The notes: generated from the letters alone by a model not told the origin. Counted from the stretch's first letter, positions 3,991-56,430 are shown. The stretch is 64,000 nucleotides of DNA from a virus (IMGVR_UViG_3300024520_000066:1745-65744), one strand, 5' to 3'. Made by a program: numbers and translations.

Positions 3991-6900
3991 CTACATGTTC
4001 ATAGTTCTCAAGAAATCCAAAGACTCTCTAAAGTCTTCTATGTTTTTAAATCTAGGTAATAACTTTTTAGCTTTATGCTTAAGCTTAAGTTCATCTTTAT
4101 ATGGCCCAACTTTATATCTTTCTCCCCATGTCCAAGGAGTCATATAATTCATAGTCTTAAATATCTGTTTAAAGTTACCAACAGCAGCCGTAGGAGTTTG
4201 AGCAATTTTAAATGCTTCTACTGGATTTAAAAATGTTGTTAATTCTGATTGTTGTCTTCTCAACAAATACGCTAAGAATATATCTTCATCATCAATATCT
4301 CCATCTCCTTCTAGAATACCATAAGCAATTGTTATCATTGTCATAAACGCAACATCAGCTAATGTTTTTCTAACACCTGCGCGCTGCTTAGGAGTTAATT
4401 CTTTCCAACTTTTAGCAACATTAATGCCGTCTTCTCTAGCGTCATTTATAAGCTTAGATAAAAATCTTGCAGTAGATATATAATATCCTTCCATGTGTTC
4501 TTTTTGATCTGCAGAATAAAACAAATCTGCTTCAGAAAGTTCAGCATCGGATGGCTTAAATGAAGTTGTAATACCTCTGAATCTACGTAAATAACCTGGT
4601 ATCATCCATTTTCTTAAGAAGAATCCCATTTTACCTAACATATATCTTTGTGCATGAGCTTGAATATCATTGGTATATTGTCCGTGTAATTCATCAACTT
4701 TACTTCTGATAAGGTTTCTAGTTTCAAGAAGAATTGCTTCCTGTCCTCCACCAGTTGTGAATGATGTATTTTGAACTTTAGAATCTAATACCATTTCTTG
4801 ACCTCCTTTAGCATTTGTTTTAAATGAAATCATTTGGTCAAGAGAAGCTGCTTTGCTTTTGTTATCAACAACATTTCCTGCTGAGTCTATCCATTGTCCT
4901 TTATCATTTTGAGCTTTAATAGAACTCAATACAGAGTACATAACTTTTCCTTGCATCATGTGTTCGCCAGAGTTTGATAGTGGGCGTAATGAATCTTGAT
5001 TCATTAATCCCTCCATTCTAGTCCCTGCTTCAAATCTTGAATTAAGATTGCTTGGCCCCATTGTATTAAAGTTTGACATCAATAAATTAGTTCTTGATGT
5101 CTTAACATTAGCACCAAAATCAGCCATTATATTCTTAAGGTCAAAACTATAAAGCTGTTGCGCTCTTTTATAATCTTTAAGATTATAAATATCACCACCA
5201 ATTGCTTCTATAAGATTTGAAAATGTACCAGTAAATGTATTCACAATACTGTTAGCATAGTTAAATACAAGTGATACAGTACCAAAATACTTTAATCCAG
5301 CTTTTACTACTTGTTGAGTCTCTACAGTTTTACCTGCTACTTTAAAACCACCCGCTTGTTTTGTTGTAATACTATAAAGTCTATTCTCAATCATTGATAA
5401 AGCTTTTTCATACTCTTTAGATTTAGATCCGCTAGTCCATAAAGGCAATCCAGTTTGAGCATCAATTTTTTGCTTACCAGATACAGAATCTAATACAGGA
5501 TATTTCTTTTCAGCCATAGTCTCTGTTATAATTAAAAGAGTTGACTCTATTGATTTCTTTTCCTCAAAATTCTTAGCCATTATAGAATTTAAAAGCCCTA
5601 TTGTATGTAGGTCAAATGATTGGTCTGATTCATTAAGTTTAGCTCTATATGGTCTAGGAAGCCTTAATGTTTCACCTTCTTTAAAATTAGTGTATGTTTG
5701 GACATCAAAGTCATCTTTCTGAGTTTCAACCAATCTACTTATAGCATTCTTACCCATAGTTGCTATTGATTGACCTTCAGCAATTCTTGAAGCTCCACTT
5801 TTCATAATTCCAGGTAATCTCATAAATTCAGCAGCTCGGTAAGTTTCTATAATAGAATCATTTTTCTCATACCTTTTATCAGCAATTCTGTTATTTTCCA
5901 TTAATCTTTCAAGCTCAGCTTTCTTTTTAGGCTGAGTCTGTAATTTATCCCATACAGGATTTTTCCAAACTTTATGTGGAACACTTCTAGTTACAGTGTA
6001 TCCATTTTTATTTACATATTGCTGTTGTTCAGTATTTAATTTTAACCAGACATTCATCTCGCTTCTTGCAATTGCTTCATTTAATGATATTGTATTTCTC
6101 TTATTATTCTTCATTTTATAAGAGACATGCATTGGTCTTTCACCATCTTTTAAGCTATCAATACCCTCTATTTGAATTTCATTCCCTCCTGCAATTGTAA
6201 GTTTTCTTTTTGAAGTTTTACCAGTCACCGGGTCGGGAATTGTAGATTCATAATGAAAAGATACAACACCATTCTTATCTGTTACTTTCTCGACTTTGAC
6301 ATCTTTATATTTTTCATCATAAATATCTGAGTCCCCAGCTTCTCTTTGAAGTTCATTCTTTTTCTCTATGAATTCAGGCTTAAACTCAGTAGTATAATAA
6401 GCTATCCCGCTTTCAGATACAGTAAACATGTCTTCATATTTCTTCTTCATGTTTCTAGCATTAGATACATTTTCTCTAAATTCTTTATGAGCCTTATCTT
6501 CAGCAGTAGCTTCTTCAATTGAGTATTTTTCAATATTACTAGAAGCCTGGTCAAGCATTTTAGATATTAATTGAATATCTTTAGCTTTCATTTCTTTTTC
6601 TGACAAAAGTTGCATAGATAACCCACTCATTTTTGTAAGAGATGTTTCTGCTCTTTCTTCAGCTAGTTGTAATTTTCTATCTTCTATTTCATCTTTATTC
6701 TCTTGCATTTTAGCTAAGACATACTCTCCTTCTTGTCTTCCATCACCACCAATTTTTTGAAGATCCTCCCAGTCTTTTTTAAATCCAAGTTTGTATTGCT
6801 CTTCAGTTTCAGTATCATGCTTAGCTAGTAATTCAGAATATACTTTTCTTGAACCCTGTAAAAGCTTTGCATCTATATTTGCTTTAATACCATTAAGCTC

Positions 6901-8100
6901 AATCATTGAGTTTCTAAGAGTTTTAGACTCTTCTTCAGTGAGAAAATCTGAGTCTTTTATTTCCTCTGCCAACGCGCTTATATCTTCCAGTATAGTGAAT
7001 GAGGCTGCCCAGTCATAAGCTTTTCTTAAAGTATCTGCACCAAGTTCACCTTGTTCTGATCTTATATCAAGAGTTGATTCCATAAAATATAACTCTCCTC
7101 TGGCCCAATCAATATACTTGATAAATCCTAATTTTTTGTCAGTCTTATCAAACTCATTTAACTCATCTTGAAGCTCTTTAATAGATCCAAGTCTAGTTTT
7201 CTTTCCTATTTTACCTAACTTCCTTGCATTTACATTTTCTTTTTTCTGAGCAGCTTTTGATGTTATTTTAGAAGATTGATTTTTATATACCTTTGTTATG
7301 GTTGCTAATAATTTTTTATATTTATCTTCTACTTTTTGTTCTAAAGTTTTTAATCCTTTTGAAGCTTCAGTTTGATTTTCATCAGCTTTTTCTTTATTAA
7401 CAAATATAGGTTTTAATTGTTGAGCTATTTCTTCTATTTTTGTAACATCTACAGCTTTCACCTTATTGTTTAGAAGTTCTTTTGATAACAATACAACTTC
7501 GCTTCTTTCAAGACCAAATGTTCTTCTTATAAAATCTGCAAACCAAGCAATAAATGATTCCCAAGAATTTCTCTTTTGTTCATCTGCCCATATTTCAGAT
7601 CCTTCTCTACCTATTGCTGTAACGAGTATTTCTTTGTGAAGCATGTCTTCTGATAATTCAGGATACAAAGCTTCAACTTCCGCCCACAATTCAGTATCTC
7701 TTAATTCATTAAGAGCTTTTTGAATTCTCTTATTCTGAAGCCCTCCTGGAAACGAGTCTATGAATACGTGTCCAAATTCATGTATTGCAGTAGTTTTGAA
7801 TAACTGATTAGGGTTAATTACAATTACAGGTTTGCCAGCAGCTTTAGTTCTTGGATCATTTTTTCCTAGAACTCTTGAGCTTTCAATATTTTCGTCATAA
7901 ATAACCTCAACATTCATTGTTTTCTTAAGAGCTTCAACCTTTTGATCAAAAGTTGCTCTCTGTTCTCTCTCGTAATCAGTTCCTTCTCTCTCTTCCTGAG
8001 ACTTAAAAGACTCTACAAGTTCAATATTTGTTGATAATACTTGAATGAGTTGGGCCTCTGTTAAGACCATATCCTCATATTTATACATTTTACAATTCAT
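3991..8100 (-). CDS. large crAss-like virion cargo protein with N-terminal zincin-like HExxH motif
   Basis: 1369 aa, TAIHEFGHVF motif, directly downstream of the vRNAP gene as in crAss-like phages. Confidence 0.75.
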   Translation of the reverse strand: MNCKMYKYEDMVLTEAQLIQVLSTNIELVESFKSQEEREGTDYEREQRATFDQKVEALKKTMNVEVIYDENIESSRVLGKNDPRTKAAGKPVIVINPNQLFKTTAIHEFGHVFIDSFPGGLQNKRIQKALNELRDTELWAEVEALYPELSEDMLHKEILVTAIGREGSEIWADEQKRNSWESFIAWFADFIRRTFGLERSEVVLLSKELLNNKVKAVDVTKIEEIAQQLKPIFVNKEKADENQTEASKGLKTLEQKVEDKYKKLLATITKVYKNQSSKITSKAAQKKENVNARKLGKIGKKTRLGSIKELQDELNEFDKTDKKLGFIKYIDWARGELYFMESTLDIRSEQGELGADTLRKAYDWAASFTILEDISALAEEIKDSDFLTEEESKTLRNSMIELNGIKANIDAKLLQGSRKVYSELLAKHDTETEEQYKLGFKKDWEDLQKIGGDGRQEGEYVLAKMQENKDEIEDRKLQLAEERAETSLTKMSGLSMQLLSEKEMKAKDIQLISKMLDQASSNIEKYSIEEATAEDKAHKEFRENVSNARNMKKKYEDMFTVSESGIAYYTTEFKPEFIEKKNELQREAGDSDIYDEKYKDVKVEKVTDKNGVVSFHYESTIPDPVTGKTSKRKLTIAGGNEIQIEGIDSLKDGERPMHVSYKMKNNKRNTISLNEAIARSEMNVWLKLNTEQQQYVNKNGYTVTRSVPHKVWKNPVWDKLQTQPKKKAELERLMENNRIADKRYEKNDSIIETYRAAEFMRLPGIMKSGASRIAEGQSIATMGKNAISRLVETQKDDFDVQTYTNFKEGETLRLPRPYRAKLNESDQSFDLHTIGLLNSIMAKNFEEKKSIESTLLIITETMAEKKYPVLDSVSGKQKIDAQTGLPLWTSGSKSKEYEKALSMIENRLYSITTKQAGGFKVAGKTVETQQVVKAGLKYFGTVSLVFNYANSIVNTFTGTFSNLIEAIGGDIYNLKDYKRAQQLYSFDLKNIMADFGANVKTSRTNLLMSNFNTMGPSNLNSRFEAGTRMEGLMNQDSLRPLSNSGEHMMQGKVMYSVLSSIKAQNDKGQWIDSAGNVVDNKSKAASLDQMISFKTNAKGGQEMVLDSKVQNTSFTTGGGQEAILLETRNLIRSKVDELHGQYTNDIQAHAQRYMLGKMGFFLRKWMIPGYLRRFRGITTSFKPSDAELSEADLFYSADQKEHMEGYYISTARFLSKLINDAREDGINVAKSWKELTPKQRAGVRKTLADVAFMTMITIAYGILEGDGDIDDEDIFLAYLLRRQQSELTTFLNPVEAFKIAQTPTAAVGNFKQIFKTMNYMTPWTWGERYKVGPYKDELKLKHKAKKLLPRFKNIEDFRESLDFLRTMNM

Positions 8101-8106
8101 AATATC

Positions 8107-11100
8107 TTATTTACAGGATATCTTCTTATCCTCTATTATTTGACTTAGGTTTTGTTTGATTACATTGTAATCAGATAATTGAGCCTCTTTAGAAAGGTTA
8201 TATGCTACTGGGTCAAATTTCTTAGCATTGTTATCTTTAAAAGTCTCTTCCATTCTCATAATAGATTCAACTTTTTCCTGAACTTTTAATTTATCTAATA
8301 TAGGCACATTATTTGATTCAACCTTAGATTCAGTTATATTTACACCTTTTTCATATTCAAATGTCTTATATTTTCCTTCAGATGTTCCAAGCTTAAATGT
8401 TCTTGCATAAACTGGGACTCTCATCTTCTGTCCATTAGCATCTTCACGGGATACAGTTCCAACTCTTTCAAACAGAAAAGTATCTCTACCCCATCTACCA
8501 TTTACAAATTTAGGAAAAGTTCCGTCATCTGAGCCAAATTCTTGACTTTTATTTTTAGCAGGTTTGTAAATAAATGCATATTGGTCACCTTGCATCTTCT
8601 GAATTTTCAATGTCTTCACTACTTTCCCGTTATCAGAACTATGTCTTTGGAATTGATCGACGAAATATTCATCAGTGGTCATCTCGTCAGCCTTAGCAAT
8701 TGCATCTCTTATTTCTCCACTCATATTAAAGTCTTTTAATATTTGATGTGGAATATGAGTAAAAAATTGAGAAAGATTATTTTGGAATCCTGAACTTAAA
8801 AATGCATATCTTGCAAGATCTATTGCAAATTTTCTATCAGGATGTATGTTTTCCATATCTAATGAACCATCTTCTTTATAATTATAAGATTCATACAAAT
8901 CCATCCATCCTCTATAAATTTGATTTTGATAATACGTTGGTTTATTCTTATTATTTATGCCTACGTATTGCTTATTTTTATATGTACCAAACTCAAACTC
9001 CTCTATTAAGAAGTTTCTTTCTGCAGTTCCATCAGATATAGCTAATTGTCTTTTCTGTATTTCAAGAGGCACATTTGTTGTAAGAACATCATATCTTTTA
9101 TTGTTGTTTTTAAACAAAGTAATACCGGACATTATATAAGAATAAAAAGCTCCATTGACAGATCTTCCAAGCTCTTCATCTGTTAATAACTTTCCATTTG
9201 CTGTTTCATTTGAAATATTATTAAAAGTATCAATAGCTCCTTGAGTCCCTGATAAAAATAAATTAGAAGCTTTCACTACATCTCTTACAAAATTCAAAGT
9301 ATTGTCTCGATAAGTACCAAGCATAGTTCCTTCAAATTTAGCTTCATATCCTACAAGTTTCTTAGATTTATCTTTTTCTGTAAGTATTTTTGTGATTTTA
9401 TTCTCATTGATTTGTCTTTCAATATTGCTACCTCCCGCACCTGCAGTGTCTGATTTAGCAGCTATCACTCCTTCAGAGAATAATTTAGCTTTATCTTTAA
9501 GAAATATCCAAGCTTTTAAAACTTCATAATCTAAATTTGGATCTGTTTTATCTGCTCTTATATTTGCTTCTAATTCAGACTCAGTTAAAGCTGCTACATT
9601 CTTACCAGTTACATTATTTCCTATTGGAGGGAAGCCATATTTATCAAGTATTTTTTCTAATGGAGATGCTTTTTCACCTGAAACCTCAACTCCTTTAGCA
9701 GTAATACTCATTTGTTCTTGTTGCAATTGAACAAGTTCTTTTAATATTGGTTGACCTATAAATCTATTTACCCATTTCATATCAACACCTGCTCTTAATA
9801 ACATAAACGTTGTATTAGCAGTAATTGAATTATGATTTGCTCTAGCTATATAAGGGTCTTTTGCAATATCAACATACGCGTTTAAGAATGCAGATAGATT
9901 ATCAGCAATTGAATTAGATCCTGTTGTTTCACTATCAAAGAAAGTAACTAGTTTCTTTTCTCCTTTTCTTTTACCAGAGGTTATTTCAACTTCTTTCTGG
10001 TTTCCAATACCAATCCATGAATCAAATCTTACGTTAAGGGATTGATTCATTACATGGTCAACAAGGTGATTAGCTGTTTGTCCAACACCCATTTTACCAG
10101 ATAAGTACTCACTTTTAGTCTCAAGCTGAGTAAGAGGAGAGAATAATTCCATATTCTTCATTACAGGAGCTTCAAACAGTCCTTTAACTCCTTTCTTCTT
10201 ATTACCTACAATATCATCTTTTAATTGCGCTCCATCAATAGACCTCATCATAGAGTCATACGTTAATGGAGAGTTTAATACAGACTTGTATAATGACACA
10301 AGCTCGTTCTGAGCCAACATCTTTTCAATCTGGGCTTCTGATACCTGATTGCCATTATCGTCAACTGCTAAGTGTTTATTTTCAGCCGTGAGCTTTGTTA
10401 GACGCATTATCTCTGGGTCATATACCAGATTGTTTTGCATTGCAAATAATTTGTCAATATCAAAGTCACTACCTGTTTTAGCAGGAAGACCATCGTACAC
10501 CACAATACTATCTCCAACTCCAGGAGGTAACACACCAACAATCTGAAGGTAGTCATTAGATGACATCCCTTGGTTAGGAATACGATAAGTTATCAATTCT
10601 AATGCGCTAGGGTCTAATAAAGCCATTGCGGAAGCAAGATCTTTACCTTCTAAACTTATTTTATGCTTATCAAGAAGCTTCATTGCTTGAGTATGAGGTA
10701 TAAAAGCCTGTCCTGGTAATACTTTTCCATTCTCAATACGAGGAGGAAGTAAACCTTCATTATTATAAGCATCAGATACAATTGTTATTCCAGAATCCTC
10801 ACCTACTTTTTCTAATCCAAATGGAGATACCTGAATAAAACTACCACCTTGAGTGCTAATTTTAGTCATTTTTCTATTCATTATAGACATGAATATGCTT
10901 TCTACTTTTCCTTTTATTTGAGGAATAGCATCAAATGGCATTTGTTTCCTAAGAGCATCAATTACATTCTCATTTCCACCTCTATCAGTAAATTCTTCTA
11001 TTAATGCATTGTAAATGTATTGCTTATCACTAATGACATTATTTTCATCAATACCAAAAGCTTTCTTTATTTCATCTTTACCTAAATTAGACAACTTGGA

Positions 11101-14100
11101 TACAGTATTATGTATCCTTTCAGCTAATTCAAATCCTTTAGTAGGAACACCATCAACAGTATATTCACTAGTTAAATCTAATCCTTCAAAAATATTCTTT
11201 TGAATTTGAGATCCAACATTAGTTTCTTTCATGTTTTTAATAGGAAGGTCTTGTTGTAATTTCCAACCTCTATTAGAAAGAACTTGAGGATTTAATACAA
11301 TATCTTCTTCAGACAATAATTCAGTAGTTCCTGCTTTATTTATAGTTGTTGGTTCTACTGCGCCAACTTTAACACCGTCAATTGTTATTACTTCATGAAT
11401 TTCCTCATAAGCTTCAATTGTATATTCTACTTTTCCAGAAGGACTAGTTTTTGTTGGCCCTTGCATTTTATTTAACATAGACTCCATTGGAGTTCCTTTA
11501 ACGAGAGAAGGAATCAATACAGCTTGAGAGTATTTTAAATAAACGGGACGACCCTCATTTATCTCAAAATACACACCTTTTAAAGGCTGAGCTGCTAATT
11601 TCATTTCTTGAGGAGACATTGATTTGCCAGATATCATCTTTTCATAGACCTTATCATGTTGTGGCCCCCATTGTCCAAGTTTTTGTTTTAAAAATCTCCA
11701 TCTACGAGGAGTTATCCAAGCCTGAGCATCAGTAGTGTTTACTTTATCATAAGCGCCTGCAATAGACTTGTCTTTTAACGAGTCTTTTATCTTTTGAACA
11801 TACTTAGATGCAACTTCAACTCCAGATACAGTGGCTTGATTAAATATTATAGAATCACCATCCTCTAATCTTAATTGTAATCCATCAGTGTATGTTGCTG
11901 GAATACGCTTAATTAAATCAGCGTTATTTTTATAGTAAGCTGGGTCACCAGAGAATAACTTTGTATATTCTACTGAAGCTATTAATCCGTTCATGAAGTA
12001 ATCTCCTGCCATTCCTACTTCCCCGCCTTTGTTCTTGTATAAATCAACTATATCTTTGCTAATTCCGTCAATTTTAGAAAGCTTTTCTGCGTGTTCAGAA
12101 ACTCTGTCACGAATATCATTCTCTATAAATTTACGAACTATATTTTCCTGTTCTTTAGATAAACCATCGTATGTTGAATCTTCAAAAGTTTCACCATAAA
12201 TAGCTTCTCTTAGTTCTTTGTATTTTGGGTCAGTGCTATCTTTATTAAATTCAGGGAATATTTGTGACTTAAGACCATTTCCATTTTCACCGTGGTAATG
12301 AACTACTTTTTTAACAGTATCATCAGAGTTCTCACGATTAACTCTTTTCATCCTGTTATATTCATCGAGGAAGTATCCAAGAGCTACTTCGACAGCTTTT
12401 GGGGAAATATAAATAGAGTTATCGTTTGGATTCAACTGGATGTTAAATGCAATCGGATTAAATCCTTCAAATAAAATTCTTCGTGATTTGTCAGCAGCTA
12501 TAATAGTTGGAAACATTGATTTGGAAGATTTATTAATCAATCCATTCAACATTTGAACTATGTTAGCGTTAATCTGGTCATTTGTAGTAATAGATGTGTT
12601 ATCAACGCCATCATTTTTTCTTCTTGATTTGAATGAAGAGTCTAAACCGGCTTTTAATCCATCCAATCTCTCATTTCTTAATTTAGTTCTTTCTGCTCCT
12701 TTTGGAGTATCAAGAGCTAATAAATATCTTAGCCATACAGAATTCTGTTTAGACTTATCCATAGCCATATTCTCTAATGAAGATGGATCTTTCTTCCATT
12801 CATTTATCTTATTAGAAATATAAGTTGGATTAGATACAGTATATCCTGTTTTACCATCATTAAGTAATACAGACATATCAGCCATATCAGTCATTCTCAT
12901 ACCTACAGCTTCAGCAAAAGCTCTTGTAGAGTTTTCTCTGTTAAATATATTCTCAAATCCTGCATCTTTTGTTGAAAATTGAAAATCAGGTTGAAGAATA
13001 TCATTTAATAAAAAGCTTATTTGTTTATGAAGCAAATCTATTGTCTGCTCCATTTTTTTATCACCACCATTCATGGTAACAAGAGTGTTTATATCATCTG
13101 TAAAAATATCAGTAGCTCCTAATCTTTGAAGAATATCTAATAAATCTACTGCAGATAAGTTTACAGCATCAAGCAATGCATTTTGATATGCTTCAGACTC
13201 TCTATTTGTTCCTGCATTTTGTAGATCTTCATTCCATAATCTTTCAGCTTCTCTTGCGTCTTTAAATATTTGAGCTAATACACCTCTTTCTCTATCCTGT
13301 AATCTGCCATTTTGATCTAAAAATCTTGCAATGAATCCGTTATTCCACTTATTCATTAACTGACTTCTTCTACTGTTTGTAGATGTAGCATTTATAACGG
13401 TATATTTACCACTATCAACTTGTGTTACAAAATAATTTAAGTGAGTTTTATTAAAAGCCTGAACAAACTCAGTTATCTTGTTCTTATTGTTTGTCTTTAC
13501 ATAAAAATCAAGCTTATCTAATAAATCATGCATCCATGGTTTTGTATCCCTGAAATCATTGATTTTATTATACATGACATCAAATATATCAACAACATTT
13601 TCTCCGTGTCCGTATCCAATTTCATCAACTAAAATACTATTTAATGTATTCCAGACATCATCAAATTTTGCAAACATTGGCATTTCAAGAAATCCATCTT
13701 CAACTGGGACTGAAACTTCAATACCATCTTCATTTTCAGCAAATACTCTTTCTTCAATCTGAGATAAGAATATTTTTGTATTTACAGTTGCTGTTTCTTT
13801 AGAGTTAGTTTCAAAACTCTCTTTTATATTTACACCACCACCCCTGTCTTCTTCTGCAATTTCAGTGATTGGATTACCTTTTTCATCAGTAATTTTTTCA
13901 CGAATCTTAACTCCAAGTCTATCAATAGTTGATATTAACTCAGTTCTAAAGTCTTCTTTATTTTTTTCTACTAATTCAATTCTTTCTAAAAGCTCAGCTT
14001 CATTCTCACGACCTTTTATTTTCTCTTTATAAGAAGCTATTGTCTTTTCAATAGAATCCATAATCCTGCCTTTCTCAAGTTCAGATGGGTCATAATTATT

Positions 14101-14490
14101 ATAGGACTTCTTGCCACTCTGCAATACAAAATTGTATAGCAAGTGTTCAGTCACTTCTTCTACTTGTTGAGCTGTAAATTCGGAGAATTTGTATTTGTCG
14201 ATATAATCTCTATCTCCATTCTTATCCGTGAAGAACCACATTCCTGTAGTTAAGTCTTTTTTCAACAGAGGCTCCCCTGTTTTAGGGTTGACAAGACCTA
14301 TTTGTTCATTCTCGAAACCTTTTTCATTTCGATAAACTTTTTCCCAATTACCAAACCTTTGCATAAAACTATTGCCTAACACTTTCGCGTAGGCAATTTC
14401 AGCTAACTGTGCATCTTGAAAGATTGATAGAAATTGGTCGTGCAATTCGGATTTCTTCCCATTTGCAGGATTTTCTACATTACATTTCAT
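8107..14490 (-). CDS. virion-packaged RNA polymerase (crAss-like, phi14:2 gp66 type)
   Basis: 2127 aa; catalytic loop TGSDFDIDKLF (DFDIDK at 10450-10467) preceded by YRIPNQ; middle gene of a trio of giant genes. Confidence 0.92.
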   Translation of the reverse strand: MKCNVENPANGKKSELHDQFLSIFQDAQLAEIAYAKVLGNSFMQRFGNWEKVYRNEKGFENEQIGLVNPKTGEPLLKKDLTTGMWFFTDKNGDRDYIDKYKFSEFTAQQVEEVTEHLLYNFVLQSGKKSYNNYDPSELEKGRIMDSIEKTIASYKEKIKGRENEAELLERIELVEKNKEDFRTELISTIDRLGVKIREKITDEKGNPITEIAEEDRGGGVNIKESFETNSKETATVNTKIFLSQIEERVFAENEDGIEVSVPVEDGFLEMPMFAKFDDVWNTLNSILVDEIGYGHGENVVDIFDVMYNKINDFRDTKPWMHDLLDKLDFYVKTNNKNKITEFVQAFNKTHLNYFVTQVDSGKYTVINATSTNSRRSQLMNKWNNGFIARFLDQNGRLQDRERGVLAQIFKDAREAERLWNEDLQNAGTNRESEAYQNALLDAVNLSAVDLLDILQRLGATDIFTDDINTLVTMNGGDKKMEQTIDLLHKQISFLLNDILQPDFQFSTKDAGFENIFNRENSTRAFAEAVGMRMTDMADMSVLLNDGKTGYTVSNPTYISNKINEWKKDPSSLENMAMDKSKQNSVWLRYLLALDTPKGAERTKLRNERLDGLKAGLDSSFKSRRKNDGVDNTSITTNDQINANIVQMLNGLINKSSKSMFPTIIAADKSRRILFEGFNPIAFNIQLNPNDNSIYISPKAVEVALGYFLDEYNRMKRVNRENSDDTVKKVVHYHGENGNGLKSQIFPEFNKDSTDPKYKELREAIYGETFEDSTYDGLSKEQENIVRKFIENDIRDRVSEHAEKLSKIDGISKDIVDLYKNKGGEVGMAGDYFMNGLIASVEYTKLFSGDPAYYKNNADLIKRIPATYTDGLQLRLEDGDSIIFNQATVSGVEVASKYVQKIKDSLKDKSIAGAYDKVNTTDAQAWITPRRWRFLKQKLGQWGPQHDKVYEKMISGKSMSPQEMKLAAQPLKGVYFEINEGRPVYLKYSQAVLIPSLVKGTPMESMLNKMQGPTKTSPSGKVEYTIEAYEEIHEVITIDGVKVGAVEPTTINKAGTTELLSEEDIVLNPQVLSNRGWKLQQDLPIKNMKETNVGSQIQKNIFEGLDLTSEYTVDGVPTKGFELAERIHNTVSKLSNLGKDEIKKAFGIDENNVISDKQYIYNALIEEFTDRGGNENVIDALRKQMPFDAIPQIKGKVESIFMSIMNRKMTKISTQGGSFIQVSPFGLEKVGEDSGITIVSDAYNNEGLLPPRIENGKVLPGQAFIPHTQAMKLLDKHKISLEGKDLASAMALLDPSALELITYRIPNQGMSSNDYLQIVGVLPPGVGDSIVVYDGLPAKTGSDFDIDKLFAMQNNLVYDPEIMRLTKLTAENKHLAVDDNGNQVSEAQIEKMLAQNELVSLYKSVLNSPLTYDSMMRSIDGAQLKDDIVGNKKKGVKGLFEAPVMKNMELFSPLTQLETKSEYLSGKMGVGQTANHLVDHVMNQSLNVRFDSWIGIGNQKEVEITSGKRKGEKKLVTFFDSETTGSNSIADNLSAFLNAYVDIAKDPYIARANHNSITANTTFMLLRAGVDMKWVNRFIGQPILKELVQLQQEQMSITAKGVEVSGEKASPLEKILDKYGFPPIGNNVTGKNVAALTESELEANIRADKTDPNLDYEVLKAWIFLKDKAKLFSEGVIAAKSDTAGAGGSNIERQINENKITKILTEKDKSKKLVGYEAKFEGTMLGTYRDNTLNFVRDVVKASNLFLSGTQGAIDTFNNISNETANGKLLTDEELGRSVNGAFYSYIMSGITLFKNNNKRYDVLTTNVPLEIQKRQLAISDGTAERNFLIEEFEFGTYKNKQYVGINNKNKPTYYQNQIYRGWMDLYESYNYKEDGSLDMENIHPDRKFAIDLARYAFLSSGFQNNLSQFFTHIPHQILKDFNMSGEIRDAIAKADEMTTDEYFVDQFQRHSSDNGKVVKTLKIQKMQGDQYAFIYKPAKNKSQEFGSDDGTFPKFVNGRWGRDTFLFERVGTVSREDANGQKMRVPVYARTFKLGTSEGKYKTFEYEKGVNITESKVESNNVPILDKLKVQEKVESIMRMEETFKDNNAKKFDPVAYNLSKEAQLSDYNVIKQNLSQIIEDKKISCK

Positions 14491-14505
14491 TATAATATGT
14501 ATTAA

Positions 14506-17500
14506 TTATTTTTTCTTAGAGCATCTAGGTTGTTTTGTGTCATCTTCCTTATTGACTTTATCGTCTGATTGAGTCCTTGTTCTAGGTTTTGATGTTGTTG
14601 AACCTGAGCCTATTTTTCTTCCTCTAGTACGAATAGTTCTAGTTGGGACGGAAGGTACGTCTTTTTCTTTAGAATCACTAATTTTAGTATCATCATTTTT
14701 TGTTACATCAGTAGTATCCTCATCAATAGTAATTTTTTTTGCATCAAATTTAGTCTGCATGTCATCCTTAATCTTGTTGATAGCATCAACATCTTCTTTA
14801 GAGACTAGTTTTCCACCAACCTTTGTTACGGCAGTTCCATCAGGCTTAACTGTAATACCATACTGATACATCTTACCTGGAAATGCTTTTGCAACAGCAG
14901 CGTTAATTTCAACCAGACTTGGCCCAGTTGCTTCAGTTATTACATTCTCTGCTCCAATAACAGGCTCTACAACTTTTTTAACTGGAGCTGTTTTCTTTAT
15001 TTTAGCCTGTTTTGCAGGAACTTTGCTGTCAACAGGTTTAGTACGGACTTGAACTCTTCTTAAGTCTCTTCCAGAAGCCTCACCTCCTGATTTCTCGTAT
15101 TGTTCTCTAGTCTCAGTTTGAAATTCAGGTTGACCTACAACAACATTAGTATTAATGATTCTATTATCTATTATAAAATCTCTGTAACCAGGATAGTTCT
15201 CTTGGTCATTCCACATATTTAGATTAACCTGTCTTCTCTTGACATCTCTTAAGTAGTCAATTAGTTCTTGTTTTTTAGACTCTCTATTTCCTGGATTTAC
15301 ATGATTATTCCCATCTCCGAAATACAGATTAACACCACTCATGTATAATTGAGATGTTAATCCTTCAGTTTTAGGGCTAACATAAACAAACATGTTTATA
15401 ATATCTTTTAGTATAGGATCACTATTCTTTTTCTTAAGTAATTCTACCTCTGGCCCTAATTGTTCTTCAACTCTTTTCTTTAAATCTGGGTCTAATAATG
15501 ATAGAGGTGTTGATAATGTATATTTCTTTGGAGTTCCTTTCTCTTTTGATGTAGGAACTGCAATATCTACTAATAAATCAGCTAATACTTCAGCCTGTTC
15601 ATTTGTATTCTTTAAGAAATTAAGTCTAACAGGAAATGGAGTCCCATCTGCTTTTCTTATAATTAAGAATAAACCACCACGATAAGGTTGAGGAGTTCCA
15701 TCCTCATTCTCTCCAACAGATAATTGTTTATTTCTAAACTCTGCATTTCGAGTTTTCTTATCCATTTCTATTAAATTCCCGTCAAGATCTGAAAATACAA
15801 TATGTGGTTCTTTCCCACTATCTTTTATTTGCTTAAGGTCTTTAATATTATTCTCTGCAACAGTACCAGATTCACTTGGCTGAAGTTGTAATTGTCCTCC
15901 AGAAGAGTTTGCAATTACAGTTTCAACTTTCTCACCTCTTGCTAACGCGTCAATTATATTTCTTCTCTCAGTGGCGTAATTCTCTTCGTATCTTTTCTTT
16001 TTAACAGCACTTCCTTCACCTGCAGAAGCATCTGGCAAGAATGTATTAATTTTATCACCATCACCAACAAATGCTTGTATTGGAAAATAGTCATATACAC
16101 TTTGAGGTATTTCTCTTTTATTTTTTACAGCAGCATTAAAAGCACTTACAGCTTTAGCTGAAGGATGTTCAGGATTTCCTCTCCAAGATCCTCTTTTAGA
16201 TAGTTCAAATCTTACAGGAACACCTTCTTTAGGTTGTCCGTTATGAATCCATTCTCTATAACCTGCGCTAGTTACACTATCTGCATCAAGTAATGCTATT
16301 GATTTACCAGTTCCAACTTTTACTTCATAAGCTTTATCTTGCTCTTGAGCAATCTCTTCTTCAAAATATCTTTCTTCATCTACATTTTCATCTTCAATAG
16401 CTTCTTGAACCGGAACATTAACCACACTATTTGGTGGATTTTTAGGATTTTTAGCTCTAGTTTTGGCATCTTGTTTTATTTCAGCTTCAGCCTTTTTGTT
16501 GATTTGTTTAGCTCTAGCTTCTGCTTCTTCTTTCTCGATGGCTTTCAGCCTTGAATCTATTTGATCTAATACTTTTTGCTTCTCACTTGATCTTGAATAT
16601 CCAGCGACCTCACCTTTTTCAACTCTTTGCTTAAAAGTATTCAACATATCTTTATCAGTAGTTGAGTCAATCAAAGCTTTTGTTTGTTTATTTATTAGAG
16701 CTTGTTGAAATTCTTTGTCATTTAGTTTAGTAAGTTGAGCTTGATTCTCAGTTATTGCGTCATTATATTCTAATTGCTCAACATATCCATCAGCTATTTC
16801 AAACTGGACATCCTTATTATATACCTTAGCGGCTAATTCATCACCTTTTTTTTGGTCACGACTTTGCTCATCTTGAGGTTTACTTAATTCTTTAAACTCT
16901 TCTTTTAATCTTGAAAGGTTGTAATTGTGATTTTTAATAATATCACTTTTTGTCTTCTTAACATCCTTGTCTATTGTTTTTTCAAGAGCTGCAGTTTGTC
17001 TTTTTATAATTTCTTGAGTAGCAAGTATCCTAGACTCTACATCTTTCTTAGTTTTAAAGTTATCACTAGGCTTTCTAATACCGTCATATCTTATACTATC
17101 TATTCTTTCTTGCTGTTCTTTCTCAGATTGTTTTGATTTTTCAGAGTATTTTTTATTTTGATACTCAATAGCAGTCATTGCTTTGATAATATTATCTTGA
17201 ACATTTCTGTTCTTAGCCTTATTGAGGTTTTTGAAATGAATTTCTTTTACCTCTTGTGCTATCTTTAATGCTCTGTTTGCATTTGACTTAGCTAATTCTG
17301 AGTTCCACTCATATCCATTGTCTTCTTCAAATTTAGTTTTTTCTTCAGAAGACATCTCTGGACCATCTTTGATAGAAGTCATTACCATCTCAAGATTGTC
17401 ATTGTTTATACCGTCAAGAATCATTGATAGCATTATATCATCTTGAGCAGCTTCTATTTCTCTTTGAGTACCTAACTGGTCAGCTTTATTTTTTTCTATT

Positions 17501-18840
17501 TGAAGTGCAGCTAATACTTTGTTTCTATCTGCTAATGCAGAATTAAAATTCTCTGCTGCATTTGCTTCAAATTCTTTTCTATCTTTAGATTGAAATGCTT
17601 TATTTACTTTTGGCCCAATCATTTGAAATACAGAACCACCAAGACCACCAAATAACATAGATGTCTTAGCTTCATCAGAAGACATTACTTCTGATAACTG
17701 ATTATTGTATTCTTCTTGAGAAATAAGACCTGCCTGTAAATCAGTTTTTAATTTAGCACGAGATGATATATAATGTTGATATCCTTCTTCAAACCCTTCT
17801 GATGCAAAAGTTCCTAAAGCTCCTGCTCCTTTTTTAACCCAACTAGGGACATCTAAAGAAGTTGTCATCTTTCTTGCAACTTCCATTTGTCTGGTAACTG
17901 GATTAAATACTTTTCCAATAGATAGGTATTGAACCATATCTTGAGCTAACATAGCCCAGCCATGTTTATAATTATCTGCAGCCCCTTCAGCAGCTAAAGC
18001 TTTTGCTTCTTCATCCGTGAAATACACCCCTGTCTTAGGGTTTATTTGCATCATTTTTTCATTATATATATCCTGAAATGTTCCTGAAGACTCCATTGAA
18101 TTTTCAATATGTCTTGAAACAACAGCTTGACTGATACCCTCAGTCATCCAATTTGCTTTTATTCCCATTTGAGAAGCTACATCAAAAGCTTCTTTTGATA
18201 TTTCTCTTCCTAATGATTTACCAACACTTTTACCAGCGCGTCCAGCAATTTTTGAAACCCCTCTTCCAATCATTCCTAATCCTTTAGTTGCCGCCATAGA
18301 TGGAATCATCATTGAAAGAGTAGATGCAACAGATACAGAGTTTTTAAACCAATATCCCGGATCAGATAAATTCATTTCACCAGGAGTTTCTTCATATATT
18401 TGTGTAGCTTCTTGAGTCTTCTCTCTTATAGATTTACCTATATCTGAAAACCAGTTAGTAAATTCTTTTTCATTACCAGCAACTAAATTACCTATACCCT
18501 GCCAATCCATTAGATATCCTAAACCCTCAATAGTTCCTCCTACTATTTCTCCAACTACAGCTTGAGTAATAGCATTCCCTAATTGATCTTGCCAAGGTTG
18601 TAATGCAGCTCTCTTTTTATTAAGGCCACCTTCCTTATCAATTTCTTCTATTGTAGCAGTCTTATCCCATTGAGAATCTCCAAGACCTGTATTACCTACA
18701 TCTCTTCTTTTTTCCCAAATAGCTTTTTTGCCAGGATCTCCAGGTAATACATCAGCAAACTCTTCTTCAGAAAATAACAGATCTGAAGGCTGTTCTACTA
18801 TCTCAAGACTTGAGTCTAATAATTCATCTAATTCATCCAT
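14506..18840 (-). CDS. large crAss-like virion cargo protein
   Basis: 1444 aa, helical/coiled-coil rich, first of the giant-gene trio. Confidence 0.7.
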   Translation of the reverse strand: MDELDELLDSSLEIVEQPSDLLFSEEEFADVLPGDPGKKAIWEKRRDVGNTGLGDSQWDKTATIEEIDKEGGLNKKRAALQPWQDQLGNAITQAVVGEIVGGTIEGLGYLMDWQGIGNLVAGNEKEFTNWFSDIGKSIREKTQEATQIYEETPGEMNLSDPGYWFKNSVSVASTLSMMIPSMAATKGLGMIGRGVSKIAGRAGKSVGKSLGREISKEAFDVASQMGIKANWMTEGISQAVVSRHIENSMESSGTFQDIYNEKMMQINPKTGVYFTDEEAKALAAEGAADNYKHGWAMLAQDMVQYLSIGKVFNPVTRQMEVARKMTTSLDVPSWVKKGAGALGTFASEGFEEGYQHYISSRAKLKTDLQAGLISQEEYNNQLSEVMSSDEAKTSMLFGGLGGSVFQMIGPKVNKAFQSKDRKEFEANAAENFNSALADRNKVLAALQIEKNKADQLGTQREIEAAQDDIMLSMILDGINNDNLEMVMTSIKDGPEMSSEEKTKFEEDNGYEWNSELAKSNANRALKIAQEVKEIHFKNLNKAKNRNVQDNIIKAMTAIEYQNKKYSEKSKQSEKEQQERIDSIRYDGIRKPSDNFKTKKDVESRILATQEIIKRQTAALEKTIDKDVKKTKSDIIKNHNYNLSRLKEEFKELSKPQDEQSRDQKKGDELAAKVYNKDVQFEIADGYVEQLEYNDAITENQAQLTKLNDKEFQQALINKQTKALIDSTTDKDMLNTFKQRVEKGEVAGYSRSSEKQKVLDQIDSRLKAIEKEEAEARAKQINKKAEAEIKQDAKTRAKNPKNPPNSVVNVPVQEAIEDENVDEERYFEEEIAQEQDKAYEVKVGTGKSIALLDADSVTSAGYREWIHNGQPKEGVPVRFELSKRGSWRGNPEHPSAKAVSAFNAAVKNKREIPQSVYDYFPIQAFVGDGDKINTFLPDASAGEGSAVKKKRYEENYATERRNIIDALARGEKVETVIANSSGGQLQLQPSESGTVAENNIKDLKQIKDSGKEPHIVFSDLDGNLIEMDKKTRNAEFRNKQLSVGENEDGTPQPYRGGLFLIIRKADGTPFPVRLNFLKNTNEQAEVLADLLVDIAVPTSKEKGTPKKYTLSTPLSLLDPDLKKRVEEQLGPEVELLKKKNSDPILKDIINMFVYVSPKTEGLTSQLYMSGVNLYFGDGNNHVNPGNRESKKQELIDYLRDVKRRQVNLNMWNDQENYPGYRDFIIDNRIINTNVVVGQPEFQTETREQYEKSGGEASGRDLRRVQVRTKPVDSKVPAKQAKIKKTAPVKKVVEPVIGAENVITEATGPSLVEINAAVAKAFPGKMYQYGITVKPDGTAVTKVGGKLVSKEDVDAINKIKDDMQTKFDAKKITIDEDTTDVTKNDDTKISDSKEKDVPSVPTRTIRTRGRKIGSGSTTSKPRTRTQSDDKVNKEDDTKQPRCSKKK

Positions 18841-18842
18841 AT

Positions 18843-20840
18843 TTATTCTTTTGAAAAGCCTGTTTTCTTATCTGCTATTTGATCGTAATACGAAGTAACT
18901 TGATTAATACTTCTTTGCATTTCTTCATCGTAAAAGAATTTGAATACTTTTGGTTCAATAGTAGTACCATCATCATTAACAGCAACTAGTGCTGTTGCTC
19001 CACTTTCAGTTGTAGCTCTTTTAAACTGCATTTTATCTAATTCATCTTTTGTGTATTCAGTTTTACTTCTTATAACTGCAGCTTCGTATCCTTTTGTTTG
19101 TGGATTAAGTTCAGTAATAACCATTTCATTTATAACGTCATTACTTACATTTGAACGCCTCTTAGTATTCATATAGTTTTTACCAGTCTTTATAGCTTCA
19201 TTCATTTTAGATATACTTCCAAGCATATCTTTAGGTTTCCCGTCATTTTGCATATAAATAACTGGAGTAGAACCATCTTCTAATTCAATTTGAACTGCAA
19301 AAGCTCCTGGCATTTCAATATGTCCAGGTGCAAATCCAAGTACTCGTCCAGTTTTTCTTACTATTGCATTAAATTCTTGAGGCTTAAGATCTAATTGTTC
19401 TGCTATAACCTCTTTACTTCCTCCTTCATGTCCAGCAATCTTCATATATTTCGTAGCAAAAGTACCATTAGCATCTCCAGATCCTATTAATTCTTTACCA
19501 AGAGCAACAAAAGTGCTTGATGGATTTTGAGGCTTGATAATCATAGACATACTCTTTTCTGCATTTTTTGCTCCATTCATGTAAATATCATAAACCTCTT
19601 TATCAGTCCAAGGTCTTGAAGGCTCTACTACATTTCCAGCTTCATCCTTTACTTCAGGTTTAAAAGAATTCAATACAGGACTATTTTTTCTTAATTCATC
19701 TAATGATGCTTTTAATTCAGCTTGCTCTTTATTTAATTGTTGGTATGTTTTATTGTTCATATCATAAGACAGCAATTCTAAATTTTTATCTTTCCAAGAA
19801 ATAGGTGATTTTTTAATTAATTCTCTTTCTTGAGCTATCTTTAATTCTCTTGCTTCATCATATTTTGGGCTTTGTTCAGGAAGCATGCCATTAACAAACC
19901 ATTCATTAGTTTTTTCTTGAGATGGTAAATTAAATGTTTCATTCCAAACGCCTTCAGTATATGTAACATTCATTGTATCCCAAACATTTTCAGTATTAAT
20001 CATTCCTTTGTTAGGATCAATTTTGTTTGATTGCATATTTGCAGGAAGTAAGTCAAATCTTCTACTTCTATCTTTTACTTGGAATACATTACCTGCTGAT
20101 TGAGCTGCTTTTGCTATTTCTTCAGATGCGTTTGCAATACCAAGCCTATCAACTTCACTAGCATAAGCCATTAAATCTAAATCACTCTCAAGTGCTTGTT
20201 TTATAACTTTTTCAATATGCTCTGCAGGCAAATCTTTATAGACATAAGACTCGTCTCTGTAAAATCCATCCTTATCCATAGTAATACCTGTTGCATCTGC
20301 AATTTGCTGAGGTGTCATTTTATCAGCAATATCATAAGCTTTATTAAGTATATCAATATGAGCTGTTCCTATATAATCTTGATATTGACCACCAGATGCA
20401 ACTCCTTGATAATTTGTAAGAGCCTCTTGTAATCCTAATTTTTTTTGTTCAGCAGTTAGATCCTTACGAGACATAATAGCTTTTTCATTTTCTTTGTACT
20501 GATTATACGCTGCGGCAGCTTGACCAGTTTTACCTGATAAGCTTAATTCATTAGTCTTTTTATTTCTTAGAGTTTTTACCTTATTAACAAGATTTCTGTC
20601 AACTCCTTGATTAAGTAATTGGTCAGTAAGTGAACTTGCCTCTTGTTTAAACGCGCCTATTTGTCCAGCAACATATTCTTTGTCTGGGCCTAGTGATTGA
20701 GACTCTAATGCTGCGAATTCATCTAATGCTAATTGTGCTTTATCCTCTTGCTCTTGTTTAGCTAGAGGAACCATAAGTATCTCATCAAGAGATAATGGTT
20801 TAAAAGATGATGTGCTTATATCTGGTGTTATTCCTGCCAT
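18843..20840 (-). CDS. putative virion cargo protein
   Basis: 665 aa, no Cys seen, between tail genes and the giant trio. Confidence 0.6.
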   Translation of the reverse strand: MAGITPDISTSSFKPLSLDEILMVPLAKQEQEDKAQLALDEFAALESQSLGPDKEYVAGQIGAFKQEASSLTDQLLNQGVDRNLVNKVKTLRNKKTNELSLSGKTGQAAAAYNQYKENEKAIMSRKDLTAEQKKLGLQEALTNYQGVASGGQYQDYIGTAHIDILNKAYDIADKMTPQQIADATGITMDKDGFYRDESYVYKDLPAEHIEKVIKQALESDLDLMAYASEVDRLGIANASEEIAKAAQSAGNVFQVKDRSRRFDLLPANMQSNKIDPNKGMINTENVWDTMNVTYTEGVWNETFNLPSQEKTNEWFVNGMLPEQSPKYDEARELKIAQERELIKKSPISWKDKNLELLSYDMNNKTYQQLNKEQAELKASLDELRKNSPVLNSFKPEVKDEAGNVVEPSRPWTDKEVYDIYMNGAKNAEKSMSMIIKPQNPSSTFVALGKELIGSGDANGTFATKYMKIAGHEGGSKEVIAEQLDLKPQEFNAIVRKTGRVLGFAPGHIEMPGAFAVQIELEDGSTPVIYMQNDGKPKDMLGSISKMNEAIKTGKNYMNTKRRSNVSNDVINEMVITELNPQTKGYEAAVIRSKTEYTKDELDKMQFKRATTESGATALVAVNDDGTTIEPKVFKFFYDEEMQRSINQVTSYYDQIADKKTGFSKE

Positions 20841-20878
20841 TGCGTAAATATATTATTTTTTCTAATTACTTGCTAATT

Positions 20879-22468
20879 TTAAGCTTTCTTTTTTTTCTTA
20901 GAAGCTAAATGTTCCCCTCTTGATCCGTAAGATAATCCCATTAATTCAGGATATCTTTTAAACAACTCCTCTTTTCCTACTCCACCGAAGTCATCCCCTA
21001 GTTGAGAAAGTAATTTAGATTTGTTTGTTTGATAAGCTGCTTGTAATTGAAGATTAGTATCTGTTTCTTTATTTGATTGACCTAAGTTAGCTGAGTCAAC
21101 TCCTAAATTAAATTCTTGAGCTTTTCTTTTTTCTTGTCTATTCTCAGCACCAGCTCCCATGTATGCTTGAGATAATACCTTACCTCCTTGAAGTTGAGAA
21201 GCTAATAAGTTTGCTCTAGCTGTTGAACCTGAACCACCTGAAGATCCTAATATAGCGTCTCTAGTATTTAATACAGATTCTTGAGCCATATTCTGTAATC
21301 CTCTTTCATCAACAAGTTGCTCATTATATCTATTACCTAATTTATCATAACCAACCTGTTCTGGTTTTTTAAGATTTGCAAGTTGAGCTATATTCATAGC
21401 CGCAGGTGCATATCTTAATAATTCTCCTGGATTAAATTTTGTTGCTGGTTTTTCATTAGTGTCTCTAGTAATTGATCCTTGCTCAATTGAATTAGCTACT
21501 TCAGCTCCTATTTCAGCATTTCTATAATCAGGCATTGTATTTGAAAAAGCATCAAGTTCTGCAATTTTATCATTTATTGCTTCAGCATCTAATGTAGCAT
21601 CATCTACGCCTATTTTTGCAAATTTACCTTGATTAGAAGCTCTTCTCATTTCAGCAATTAAATTTTCAGTTTCAGCATAAGGATCTGTATTATGTTCTCC
21701 ACCGTGAACAAACATATTAGCTAAGATATGTCCACCTGATTTATAATCATTAGTTGCTTTATTATGTAAGTTTTCATCATAAGCAACTGATGCTTTATTT
21801 GCTTCATTTTGAGCTTTCTTTCCTCCTACTAGCCCTGAAACACCACCAACTACGCCACCAATAGCAGCACCCCATGGTCCAAATGCCATACCTGCTTGCG
21901 CACCTTTCATTGCACCACTAGCTGCTGCTGCTCCTTGAGAAGGAACTGCTGGTGCAGCTTGTCTGCCACTAGTGTCAATTCCTGTTGGGCCAAATGCAGT
22001 TTTTGCTAAATCAATAGCTGTTGTTGCCGCACCTACATAGCCACCAGCTCCAGCACCTGCTGCTCCAGCTCCACTACCAAGTAAAGATCCAATACCACCT
22101 CCAGCAGCACCTCCAGCGCCTGCAGCAGCTCCACCTGCAGCTCCACCTGCAGCAGCAGCACCACCACCTAACATACTTGTTAAGCCACCAAGAAAGAATT
22201 GGTTGGACGCAGGTTCAGAGCCTGTCGGCTCTGCACCAAATCCAGCGTTGGCTGGATTTTTTGCCACCTGCTGTGGCTTTGTTCTTTTCTCTTGTTCAGC
22301 CTTAACAAACTCTTGAGCTTGTTGAAGTCTTCCTTGCAACTCATTTAATGTTTGCTCATCTTCTGGACTACTTCTGCCCTCAAACTTCTTAGCTATTAAT
22401 GCGCTTGCCTCTGAAAAGGACTTTCCTTTCAAATACGATGGCAGGTTAAATTGTTTAATTATATCCAT
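20879..22468 (-). CDS. putative ejected cargo protein with Gly/Ala-rich membrane-inserting segments
   Basis: Long GA-rich tract and glycine-zipper GPWGAAIGGVVGGVSGLVGG. Confidence 0.65.
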   Translation of the reverse strand: MDIIKQFNLPSYLKGKSFSEASALIAKKFEGRSSPEDEQTLNELQGRLQQAQEFVKAEQEKRTKPQQVAKNPANAGFGAEPTGSEPASNQFFLGGLTSMLGGGAAAAGGAAGGAAAGAGGAAGGGIGSLLGSGAGAAGAGAGGYVGAATTAIDLAKTAFGPTGIDTSGRQAAPAVPSQGAAAASGAMKGAQAGMAFGPWGAAIGGVVGGVSGLVGGKKAQNEANKASVAYDENLHNKATNDYKSGGHILANMFVHGGEHNTDPYAETENLIAEMRRASNQGKFAKIGVDDATLDAEAINDKIAELDAFSNTMPDYRNAEIGAEVANSIEQGSITRDTNEKPATKFNPGELLRYAPAAMNIAQLANLKKPEQVGYDKLGNRYNEQLVDERGLQNMAQESVLNTRDAILGSSGGSGSTARANLLASQLQGGKVLSQAYMGAGAENRQEKRKAQEFNLGVDSANLGQSNKETDTNLQLQAAYQTNKSKLLSQLGDDFGGVGKEELFKRYPELMGLSYGSRGEHLASKKKKKA

Positions 22469-22478
22469 GATAATTTTA

Positions 22479-56265: not shown

Positions 56266-56358
56266 ATGATTGAATGGTATTACATTCCTGCTTTTATTAT
56301 TATTGGTTTTTTAGGATTTGTTTTTAACGACTACATCCGTAAGAACCGTTTTAAGTAG
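56266..56358 (+). CDS. 30-aa single-pass membrane peptide, antisense to the tail operon (moron-like)
   Basis: MIEWYYIPAFIIIGFLGFVFNDYIRKNRFK*; weak TATCTTTA -7-like element at 56253-56260. Confidence 0.5.
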   Translation: MIEWYYIPAFIIIGFLGFVFNDYIRKNRFK

Positions 56359-56430
56359 CGTTGGTAGGATTCGAACCTACGACCTCGAGAAAAGGATTCT
56401 CGCGAGCTAACCAAACTGCTCTACAACGCG
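56356..56430 (-). tRNA. initiator (fMet)-like tRNA with CCU anticodon
   Basis: CGCGTTG TA GAGC AGTTTGGTTA GCTC G CGAGA ATCCTTT TCTCG AGGTC GTAGG TTCGAAT CCTAC CAACGCT A; full cloverleaf, C1xU72 mismatch, A11-U24, no encoded CCA. Confidence 0.88.

Follow-up and report, generated by a model that had tools for sequence, protein, structure and literature searches.

Terminal cysteines at the facing ends of three giant cargo proteins of a crAss-like phage, and their possible role as links of an ejected chain

The cargo module and its four cysteines

The distribution of cysteines (Cys) was analyzed in the tail and cargo module of a crAss-like phage (Crassvirales), carried by a viral DNA stretch of 64,000 nucleotides (IMGVR_UViG_3300024520_000066:1745-65744) which is called here the window and from whose first letter all positions are counted. 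The module lies on the minus strand between 3991 and 29839 and ends with three giant genes, encoding the first giant cargo protein (A, 1444 amino acids (aa), 14506-18840), the virion RNA polymerase (vRNAP; V, 2127 aa, 8107-14490) and the third giant cargo protein (C, 1369 aa, 3991-8100), all three on the minus strand. Taken together, A, V and C contain four Cys in 4,940 residues, and each of the four lies next to an end that faces the neighbouring protein of the series. The pattern is conserved in relatives of the phage and is tied to the way in which the three genes are split or fused. We consider it probable, on the basis of this sequence comparison, that A, V and C are joined by terminal disulfides into one chain, which would be ejected as a thread and freed by reduction.

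The sole Cys of A is residue 1440, four residues from the C-terminal end, in PRCSKKK (codon TGC, 14521-14523). V has Cys only at residue 3, in MKC (TGT, 14482-14484), and at its penultimate residue 2126, in ISCK (TGT, 8113-8115), and the sole Cys of C is residue 3, in MNC (TGT, 8092-8094); the four codons are on the minus strand. No Cys occurs at the outer ends, i.e. in the first 12 residues of A or the last 12 of C. An initial annotation of the window had placed four Cys only at the adjoining termini of the trio and had seen none at the two outer ends or in the neighbouring proteins of 665, 529 and 844 aa. Open reading frames (ORFs) and codon coordinates agree with it to the base, and the count gives 0 Cys for each of the three smaller proteins (18843-25013, minus strand), which stand outside the Cys-tipped chain. 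The start of C at the first ATG (MNCKM...) is supported by the starts of its relatives, which read MSCTT, MSCKL or MSCKT and in which position 5 is not a Met. In the rest of the window ORFs, 86 Cys are found in 13,331 aa (0.645%). At this background about 32 Cys would be expected in the trio, compared to the 4 observed (Poisson P 7e-10), and the probability that four random Cys land one per inner 5-residue end window, in the four such windows, is 2.5e-11. Depletion and placement together exclude chance.

The polymerase was recognized by phmmer, where V matched the DNA-dependent RNA polymerase of phi14:2 (PDB 6vr4_A) with an E-value of 8.3e-207; the identity between V and the phi14:2 polymerase is 30% over 96%. 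V is homologous to phi14:2 gp66, the protein of entry PDB 6VR4. The catalytic motif DFDID of V occupies residues 1342-1346 (10453-10467, minus strand), and D1342, F1343, D1344 and D1346 are invariant, as is C3, in a six-sequence vRNAP alignment (A1). BLASTP matched A with p-crAssphage gp45 (2e-16), crAss001 gp47 (4e-6) and the N-terminal part of a fused protein of a further relative (L084, 1e-29), and C with phi14:2 gp076 (4.5e-76) and crAss001 gp49 (2.5e-42); PHROGs and Pfam gave little for A and C. An HEFGH sequence, which corresponds to the HExxH (zincin-like) motif, is present in the N-terminal part of C at residues 107-111 (7768-7782, minus strand). By analogy with phi14:2 and crAss001, whose virions were analyzed by mass spectrometry, A, V and C are probably packed in the virion and ejected.

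The order of the module, read on the minus strand, is muzzle, 844-aa protein, 529- and 665-aa proteins, A, V and C. The muzzle protein (25775-29839, minus strand; Pfam PF25731 crAss_MUZ, 2.9e-205) contains 10 Cys, and the 844-aa protein (22479-25013, minus strand) has a cargo protein 1 domain (Pfam PF25725 crAss_CARG1, 1.4e-18). The window thus holds the block expected of a Crassvirales vRNAP, namely a giant DFDID protein and two giant partners with cargo protein 1 and muzzle upstream; the major capsid protein and further crassvirus genes are located farther along. No near-identical DNA was found for the window in the phage collection. Cys-free ORFs exist elsewhere in the window: a 683-aa ORF with a Pfam TMP_3 tape-measure match (54111-56162, minus strand), which stands beside a tRNA-Arg (anticodon CCT, 56355-56430, minus strand), and other large ORFs, including those at 47703-50261 and 59602-60912.

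Conservation of the terminal cysteines

Conservation was analyzed on 90 crAss-like loci (designated below, where needed, by L and a number): the window, 85 IMG/VR loci, phi14:2, crAss001, p-crAssphage and crAss002. Eighty further loci of this sample were taken from 473 confirmed relatives obtained by a search with the polymerase alignment. A junction was defined by consecutive ORFs of at least 1000 aa, and Cys were sought among the 16 C-terminal residues of the upstream ORF and the 12 N-terminal residues of the downstream one. Cys are present on both sides at 103 of the 109 giant-ORF junctions, which represent 84 distinct junction peptide pairs. The initial annotation had proposed to check its observation by locating the Cys across Crassvirales, fused and split genes included, and the pattern proves to be conserved. 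In background ORFs of the same loci, a Cys occurs in the first 12 residues in 24/270 and in the last 16 residues in 42/270; the small upstream cargo ORFs of the relatives have an N-terminal Cys in 0/83 and a C-terminal Cys in 3/83. The usual sites at the junctions are residues 3-5 at the N-terminal end and 0-2 residues from the C-terminal end. Exactly two Cys per junction and none elsewhere are found in 27 of the 69 chains for which both outer ends are available, the window being one of them.

These residues are maintained in otherwise diverged sequences. In alignments of 49 sequences, no column is invariant except that of the Cys, C199 for the last 200 residues of V and C3 for the first 780 residues of C, the mean column identity being 11-12%. 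Among the close relatives (six IMG/VR loci with polymerases 59-70% identical), the Cys of the V C-terminal end and of the C N-terminal end are present in 6/6 loci, that of the V N-terminal end in 5/5 loci holding this end, and that of the A C-terminal end in 4/5, the exception being the truncated A ORF of L005, which has no Cys. In phi14:2, the sole Cys of gp078 is its last residue, gp077 has only Cys 3 and 2179, and gp076 only Cys 3. In crAss001, gp47 (2341 residues) has its sole Cys at 2339, and Cys are found at positions 5, 1334 and 2404 of gp50 and at position 5 of gp49. In 25 loci (L044-L089; e.g. L048, L066 and L086) intact giant ORFs are obtained only when TAG is translated as a sense codon, each polymerase-bearing ORF containing 26-79 TAG in frame; read in this way, these loci also have the Cys clasp, at the junction between AV and C. 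The arrangement extends to Flavobacterium phage Fpv3 (L011, Fipvunavirus), which is outside Crassvirales: gp32 (4287 aa), which bears the polymerase, has its sole Cys at residue 4286, and gp33 starts with MAC. Fpv3 was read by hand and stands outside the automated counts, the motif regex having missed its V. In the same phage, the only Cys of gp30 (598 aa) is residue 5.

The terminal Cys could be a by-product of DNA or mRNA signals at the junctions (start/stop context, translational coupling), of wrongly assigned starts or of chance. The starts of V and C in the window both read ATGAAWTGTAA, as such signals would have it, and some first-ATG calls of the sample are wrong (L004-L006, L010 and L088). 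We give this explanation almost no credence. In crAss001, the gene of gp47 (A) lies apart from that of gp50 (V), on the other strand, and the protein nevertheless keeps its C-terminal Cys, so that the pattern is not a DNA signal of adjoining genes. The residues flanking the Cys and their spacing vary (N-terminal contexts MKC, MSC, MKEC, MKYC and MSKRC), both Cys codons are used (TGT 209 times, TGC 16 times), Cys are lacking at the outer ends and at the small cargo gene junctions, and chance is excluded by the probabilities given above.

A few other Cys were observed at the edges of this pattern. They belong to smaller proteins of the cargo region: in p-crAssphage (L009), gp47 ends in ...KQSCR with a lone Cys near the C-terminal end, and the protein that follows offers no N-terminal Cys as a partner; p-crAssphage gp48 and crAss002 (L010) gp30 end in RCGG..., again with a lone Cys and a next protein lacking an N-terminal partner. 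Two loci contain an extra gene with a CxxxxxxC motif between the polymerase pieces and C (L035:13185-16670, 1161 aa; L036:15807-17528, 573 aa). The Cys clasp of L036 seems to bypass the inserted gene.

Gene splits, gene fusions and the pairing of cysteines

The division of A, V and C into separate ORFs differs among relatives, and the terminal Cys follow this division. Where A and V are fused, the fusion, of 3,500-5,300 aa, often contains a single Cys, located at its C-terminal end, as in L022, L024, L026, L032, L038 and L072; the C protein that comes after it still has its N-terminal Cys. The sole Cys of the V+C fusion of L073 is residue 3, and the A protein preceding it ends in ...KYCNK. In L068, the fused V and C (at least 3,998 aa, with an open 5' end and about 740 residues ahead of V) contain no Cys. 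The same correspondence is seen when the splits are more numerous or displaced: one extra split in L022 is accompanied by one extra Cys pair, the A|V split of L033 lies about 600 residues farther upstream and has its Cys pair at the new site, and in L079 and L084 the split occurs after the zincin motif, not before it, and a Cys pair is again present. Where a fusion has removed a junction, none of the fused forms examined retains a Cys pair at the corresponding position. The vRNAP tree requires at least 7 changes of the A|V state, and in independent contrasts the N-terminal Cys tracks the split in about 4.7 of 5 cases and the reverse in 0 (sign test p 0.0625).

The fusion and split patterns fit only two pairs, A end with V start and V end with C start. 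A loop between the start and the end of V was also considered, as was a pairing of the A end with the C start; both are incompatible with these patterns. The most forceful argument for the pairing, which this comparison supports, is provided by the split and fusion rule. It bears out the proposal of the initial annotation that the C-terminal Cys of one protein joins the N-terminal Cys of the next, a proposal that agrees moreover with the disulfide of the same signature known in cyanopodophage A4 (see below). Its wording "in gene order" had to be corrected, since the position of crAss001 gp47 shows that the rule follows the proteins and not the adjacency of their genes.

HExxH motifs are found near junctions or their equivalents in the window and in L009, L010, L022, L026, L048, L068, L073, L079 and L084. 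Their place varies, from the start of C in the window to the vicinity of the A end in p-crAssphage and crAss002, or inside fused ORFs elsewhere, and L048 and L068 have two such motifs each. The zincin motifs might serve to cut the fused forms where the split forms would use a reducible link. Their proximity also raises the question of a metal ion, such as zinc, bridged by the Cys pair, or of another thiol chemistry in place of a disulfide; the comparison of loci reveals the pairing only, not the chemistry. A bridge of this kind is nonetheless very improbable: a metal would be held only weakly by two thiols, the junction Cys has no conserved His, Asp or further Cys beside it, and the A4 structure, which has the same signature, shows a disulfide (PMC12002296, available part of the text). 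Furthermore the pair tracks the split and not the zincin, the split of L079 and L084 being about 900 residues or more after HExxH, and there is no HExxH near the A|V junction of the window.

Two other functions of the terminal Cys were considered and rejected. In a cysteine switch of a zincin zymogen, the Cys is expected to track the HExxH domain that it blocks; here the pair follows the split and not HExxH, which is far from it in L079 and L084 and missing at the A|V junction of the window. In a split intein with trans-splicing, tens of residues are expected between the Cys and the chain ends to accommodate the intein halves. The Cys are mostly 0-3 residues from the C-terminal end and at positions 3-5 of the next protein, which leaves no room for them.

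A putative covalent chain and comparison with known systems

A mechanism may be proposed from these observations. The trio is kept free of Cys except for one Cys at most 5 residues from each terminus that faces the next protein, and two inter-chain disulfides, A-Cys1440/V-Cys3 and V-Cys2126/C-Cys3, would be present in the finished particle, giving a single covalent chain A-S-S-V-S-S-C. With its links at the extreme ends of the proteins, this chain would have the topology of one unbranched polypeptide of about 4,900 residues, a form that relatives do encode, by natural gene fusion. Such a single-thread topology would make passage through the portal and tail possible: the chain could leave the capsid by this narrow way as a partly unfolded thread, each protein pulling the next, and the lack of internal Cys would avoid loops and stray oxidation en route. 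The reducing cytoplasm would then open the links and free the polymerase and its partners. The disulfide chemistry is plausible by analogy, the window having the signature of the proven head-to-tail disulfide of A4; for the crassviruses we infer the bond from the paired Cys, and likewise the threading as a single chain and the reductive release.

In cyanopodophage A4, a disulfide between Cys1715 of gp27 and Cys5 of gp26 was seen by cryo-electron microscopy; gp27 is lodged by its C-terminal helix in a cleft of gp26, and the bond lends stability to the folded pentameric ring that the two proteins form round the portal axis (PMC12002296, PNAS 2025, according to the available part of the article). 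In the record of Anabaena phage A-4L, gp27 (1717 aa) has its sole Cys at 1715 and gp26 (1114 aa) its sole Cys at 5, and the pair is kept in 3/3 other Saffermanviridae checked (23-27% identical). As in the window, the A4 proteins are consecutive giant internal or ejection proteins, near Cys-free, with a sole or near-sole terminal Cys, and the offsets of the Cys are comparable (-2/5 in A4, -4/3 and -1/3 in the window). The A4 chain differs by the lack of a vRNAP and by one link rather than two, and the available part of the article describes one bond in a folded ring and no chain, split and fusion rule or reductive release (PMC12002296).

Structure prediction of the terminal peptide pairs, another check proposed in the initial annotation, was run for the V tail with the C head and turned out weakly supportive: the score is 0.32, compared to 0.00 for the best control. 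The 0.32 mark is reached by 58/80 solved complexes and 2/110 mismatched pairs, and at 0.60 or under by only 7/80 solved complexes together with both mismatches. The runs share at least 38% of their contacts, with a partner predicted local distance difference test (pLDDT) of at least 69. In the model of C, residues 1-13 form short strands belonging to the N-terminal domain (pLDDT 74-90).

This prediction, these strands and the folded ring of A4 would also suit another role of the Cys pair, in which the facing termini dock non-covalently, like the gp27 helix in its A4 cleft, and the pair only locks packaging or the assembly of a pre-ejectosome in the head (stoichiometric co-packaging, stability), with no part in threading or timed release. 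We regard a role restricted to such a lock as unlikely. It leaves unexplained why the links lie 0-5 residues from the ends at differently placed splits, and why full fusions are tolerated as equivalents. It is also compatible with the disulfide-linked chain, not exclusive of it.

Several points weigh against the disulfide-linked chain. The Cys-pair test fails at 6 of the 109 junctions. The sole clear orphan of the sample is L087, where the polymerase (L087:2942-18310) is split 143 residues before DFD, the upstream part ending in ...YTQC and the downstream part starting with MLTKEAV..., i.e. the C-terminal Cys faces no N-terminal Cys. In L035 and L036, V is interrupted by a break devoid of Cys, in addition to the inserted gene. 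The Cys of A in L019 lies 31 residues from the end; L010 has a miscalled start and fails unless a later one is used (MSC, residues 33-35); in L038 the size rule counted a 1050-aa ORF that encodes an upstream cargo protein instead of A. In gut lineages the giant ORFs hold up to about 20 internal Cys, so that strict Cys-freeness is not universal. The independent-pairs test misses 0.05, 0.0625 being the limit for 5 pairs, and the tree, built with FastTree only on the polymerase core (87 rows), has 19 unsupported inner branches out of 81. No significant BLASTP match was obtained between A4 gp26/gp27 and A, V or C (best E-values 0.028, 0.37 and 1.1), and the A4 precedent is therefore an analogy. 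The cargo RNA polymerase proteins are not resolved in the crAss001 maps, according to the available text of the crAss001 atlas (PMC10172136). Finally the particles assemble in a reducing cytoplasm, and the bond could thus form only late.

AlphaFold 2 models of C residues 1-780 (pLDDT 81.2) and 620-1369 (pLDDT 79.4) were also compared with known structures. Foldseek gave no PDB match at an E-value of 0.001 or less, and these comparisons of C yielded no fold link to A4 gp26 or to any solved ejection protein, a result which, for long multi-domain models, does not make the folds different. The top weak rows for C 1-780 are zincin-type proteases (E-values 0.15-0.23), and the best VIA Z for C 620-1369 is 4.3, obtained in a wide search with a long, multi-domain model.

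Among phages of the human gut, crassviruses are the most abundant, and an RNA polymerase cargo of about 0.5-0.7 megadaltons has to cross their narrow tail. A covalent linear chain, if true, would explain the order and completeness of delivery, the free fusion and splitting of the three genes in evolution, and a polymerase kept inactive and then released. The terminal-Cys signature would also be a simple sequence rule for spotting ejected chains in uncultured phages. As a wider and still tentative generalization, which we hold with less assurance than the chain itself, in giant ejected polyproteins, terminal disulfides could stand in for peptide bonds as links cleavable by redox change: a split would need a Cys clasp at its new ends, in crAss-like phages, in Fpv3 and independently in A4-like phages, the virion would always eject one covalent thread, and the cytoplasm would cut it by reduction, with a neighbouring zincin possibly cutting the fused forms. 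The head-to-tail type of link is known from one structure, that of A4. A literature search, with supplements and most subscription journals outside its reach, found no paper on terminal Cys or disulfide links of crassvirus RNA polymerase cargo proteins, and we found no published description of a conserved two-link chain, such as the one proposed here, round the crassvirus polymerase, or of its fission and fusion rule.

Phages of other groups place these proteins in a wider context. In T7 (L092), gp15 and gp16 lack Cys altogether, terminal pairs included, and gp14 has one Cys at residue 2; the clasp is thus not general to podophages, and Cys suppression can occur without clasps. The N4-like phages (Schitoviridae: N4 gp50, DEV gp71-gp73) resemble the window by a giant ejected vRNAP in which Cys is strongly suppressed. 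The initial annotation had stated that N4-type vRNAP is Cys-free in relation with its passage through the periplasm, which is indeed stated in the available text of PMC11445570, where the suppression of Cys in the ejected proteins of N4-like phages is explained by envelope passage. The N4-type vRNAP, of another polymerase family, is a single protein of about 3,400-3,500 aa, essentially Cys-free and with no terminal pairs reported, and the window, with four conserved terminal Cys, departs from the N4-like rule of "no conserved Cys". In disulfide-linked two-chain toxins, one chain crosses a membrane unfolded, attached by one inter-chain disulfide that is reduced in the cytosol for release; these are unrelated proteins with another delivery route, and the analogy is one of logic only.

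Among cultured crassviruses, phi14:2 gp078-gp077-gp076 and crAss001 gp47/gp50/gp49 are homologous to A, V and C and have the same terminal Cys pattern. Both sets of cargo proteins were found in virions by mass spectrometry, according to record notes for phi14:2 and to the available text of PMC10172136 for crAss001. The words cysteine, Cys and disulfide have 0 occurrences in the preprint text on the phi14:2 polymerase, taken without supplements or journal version. The main text of the crAss001 atlas, as far as available and with its supplements set aside, has 0 mentions of cysteine and 7 of disulfide, all for tail and portal-vertex proteins (PMC10172136). The same source indicates that crAss001 virions contain disulfides in these tail and portal-vertex proteins, and that the RNA polymerase cargo is thought to traverse the tail partly unfolded. 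For phi14:2, the authors of the preprint, in its available text, put forward that the polymerase is packaged in a self-inhibited state and needs activation on entry, the fused forms being probably cleaved. A reducible link between the cargo proteins fits this picture.

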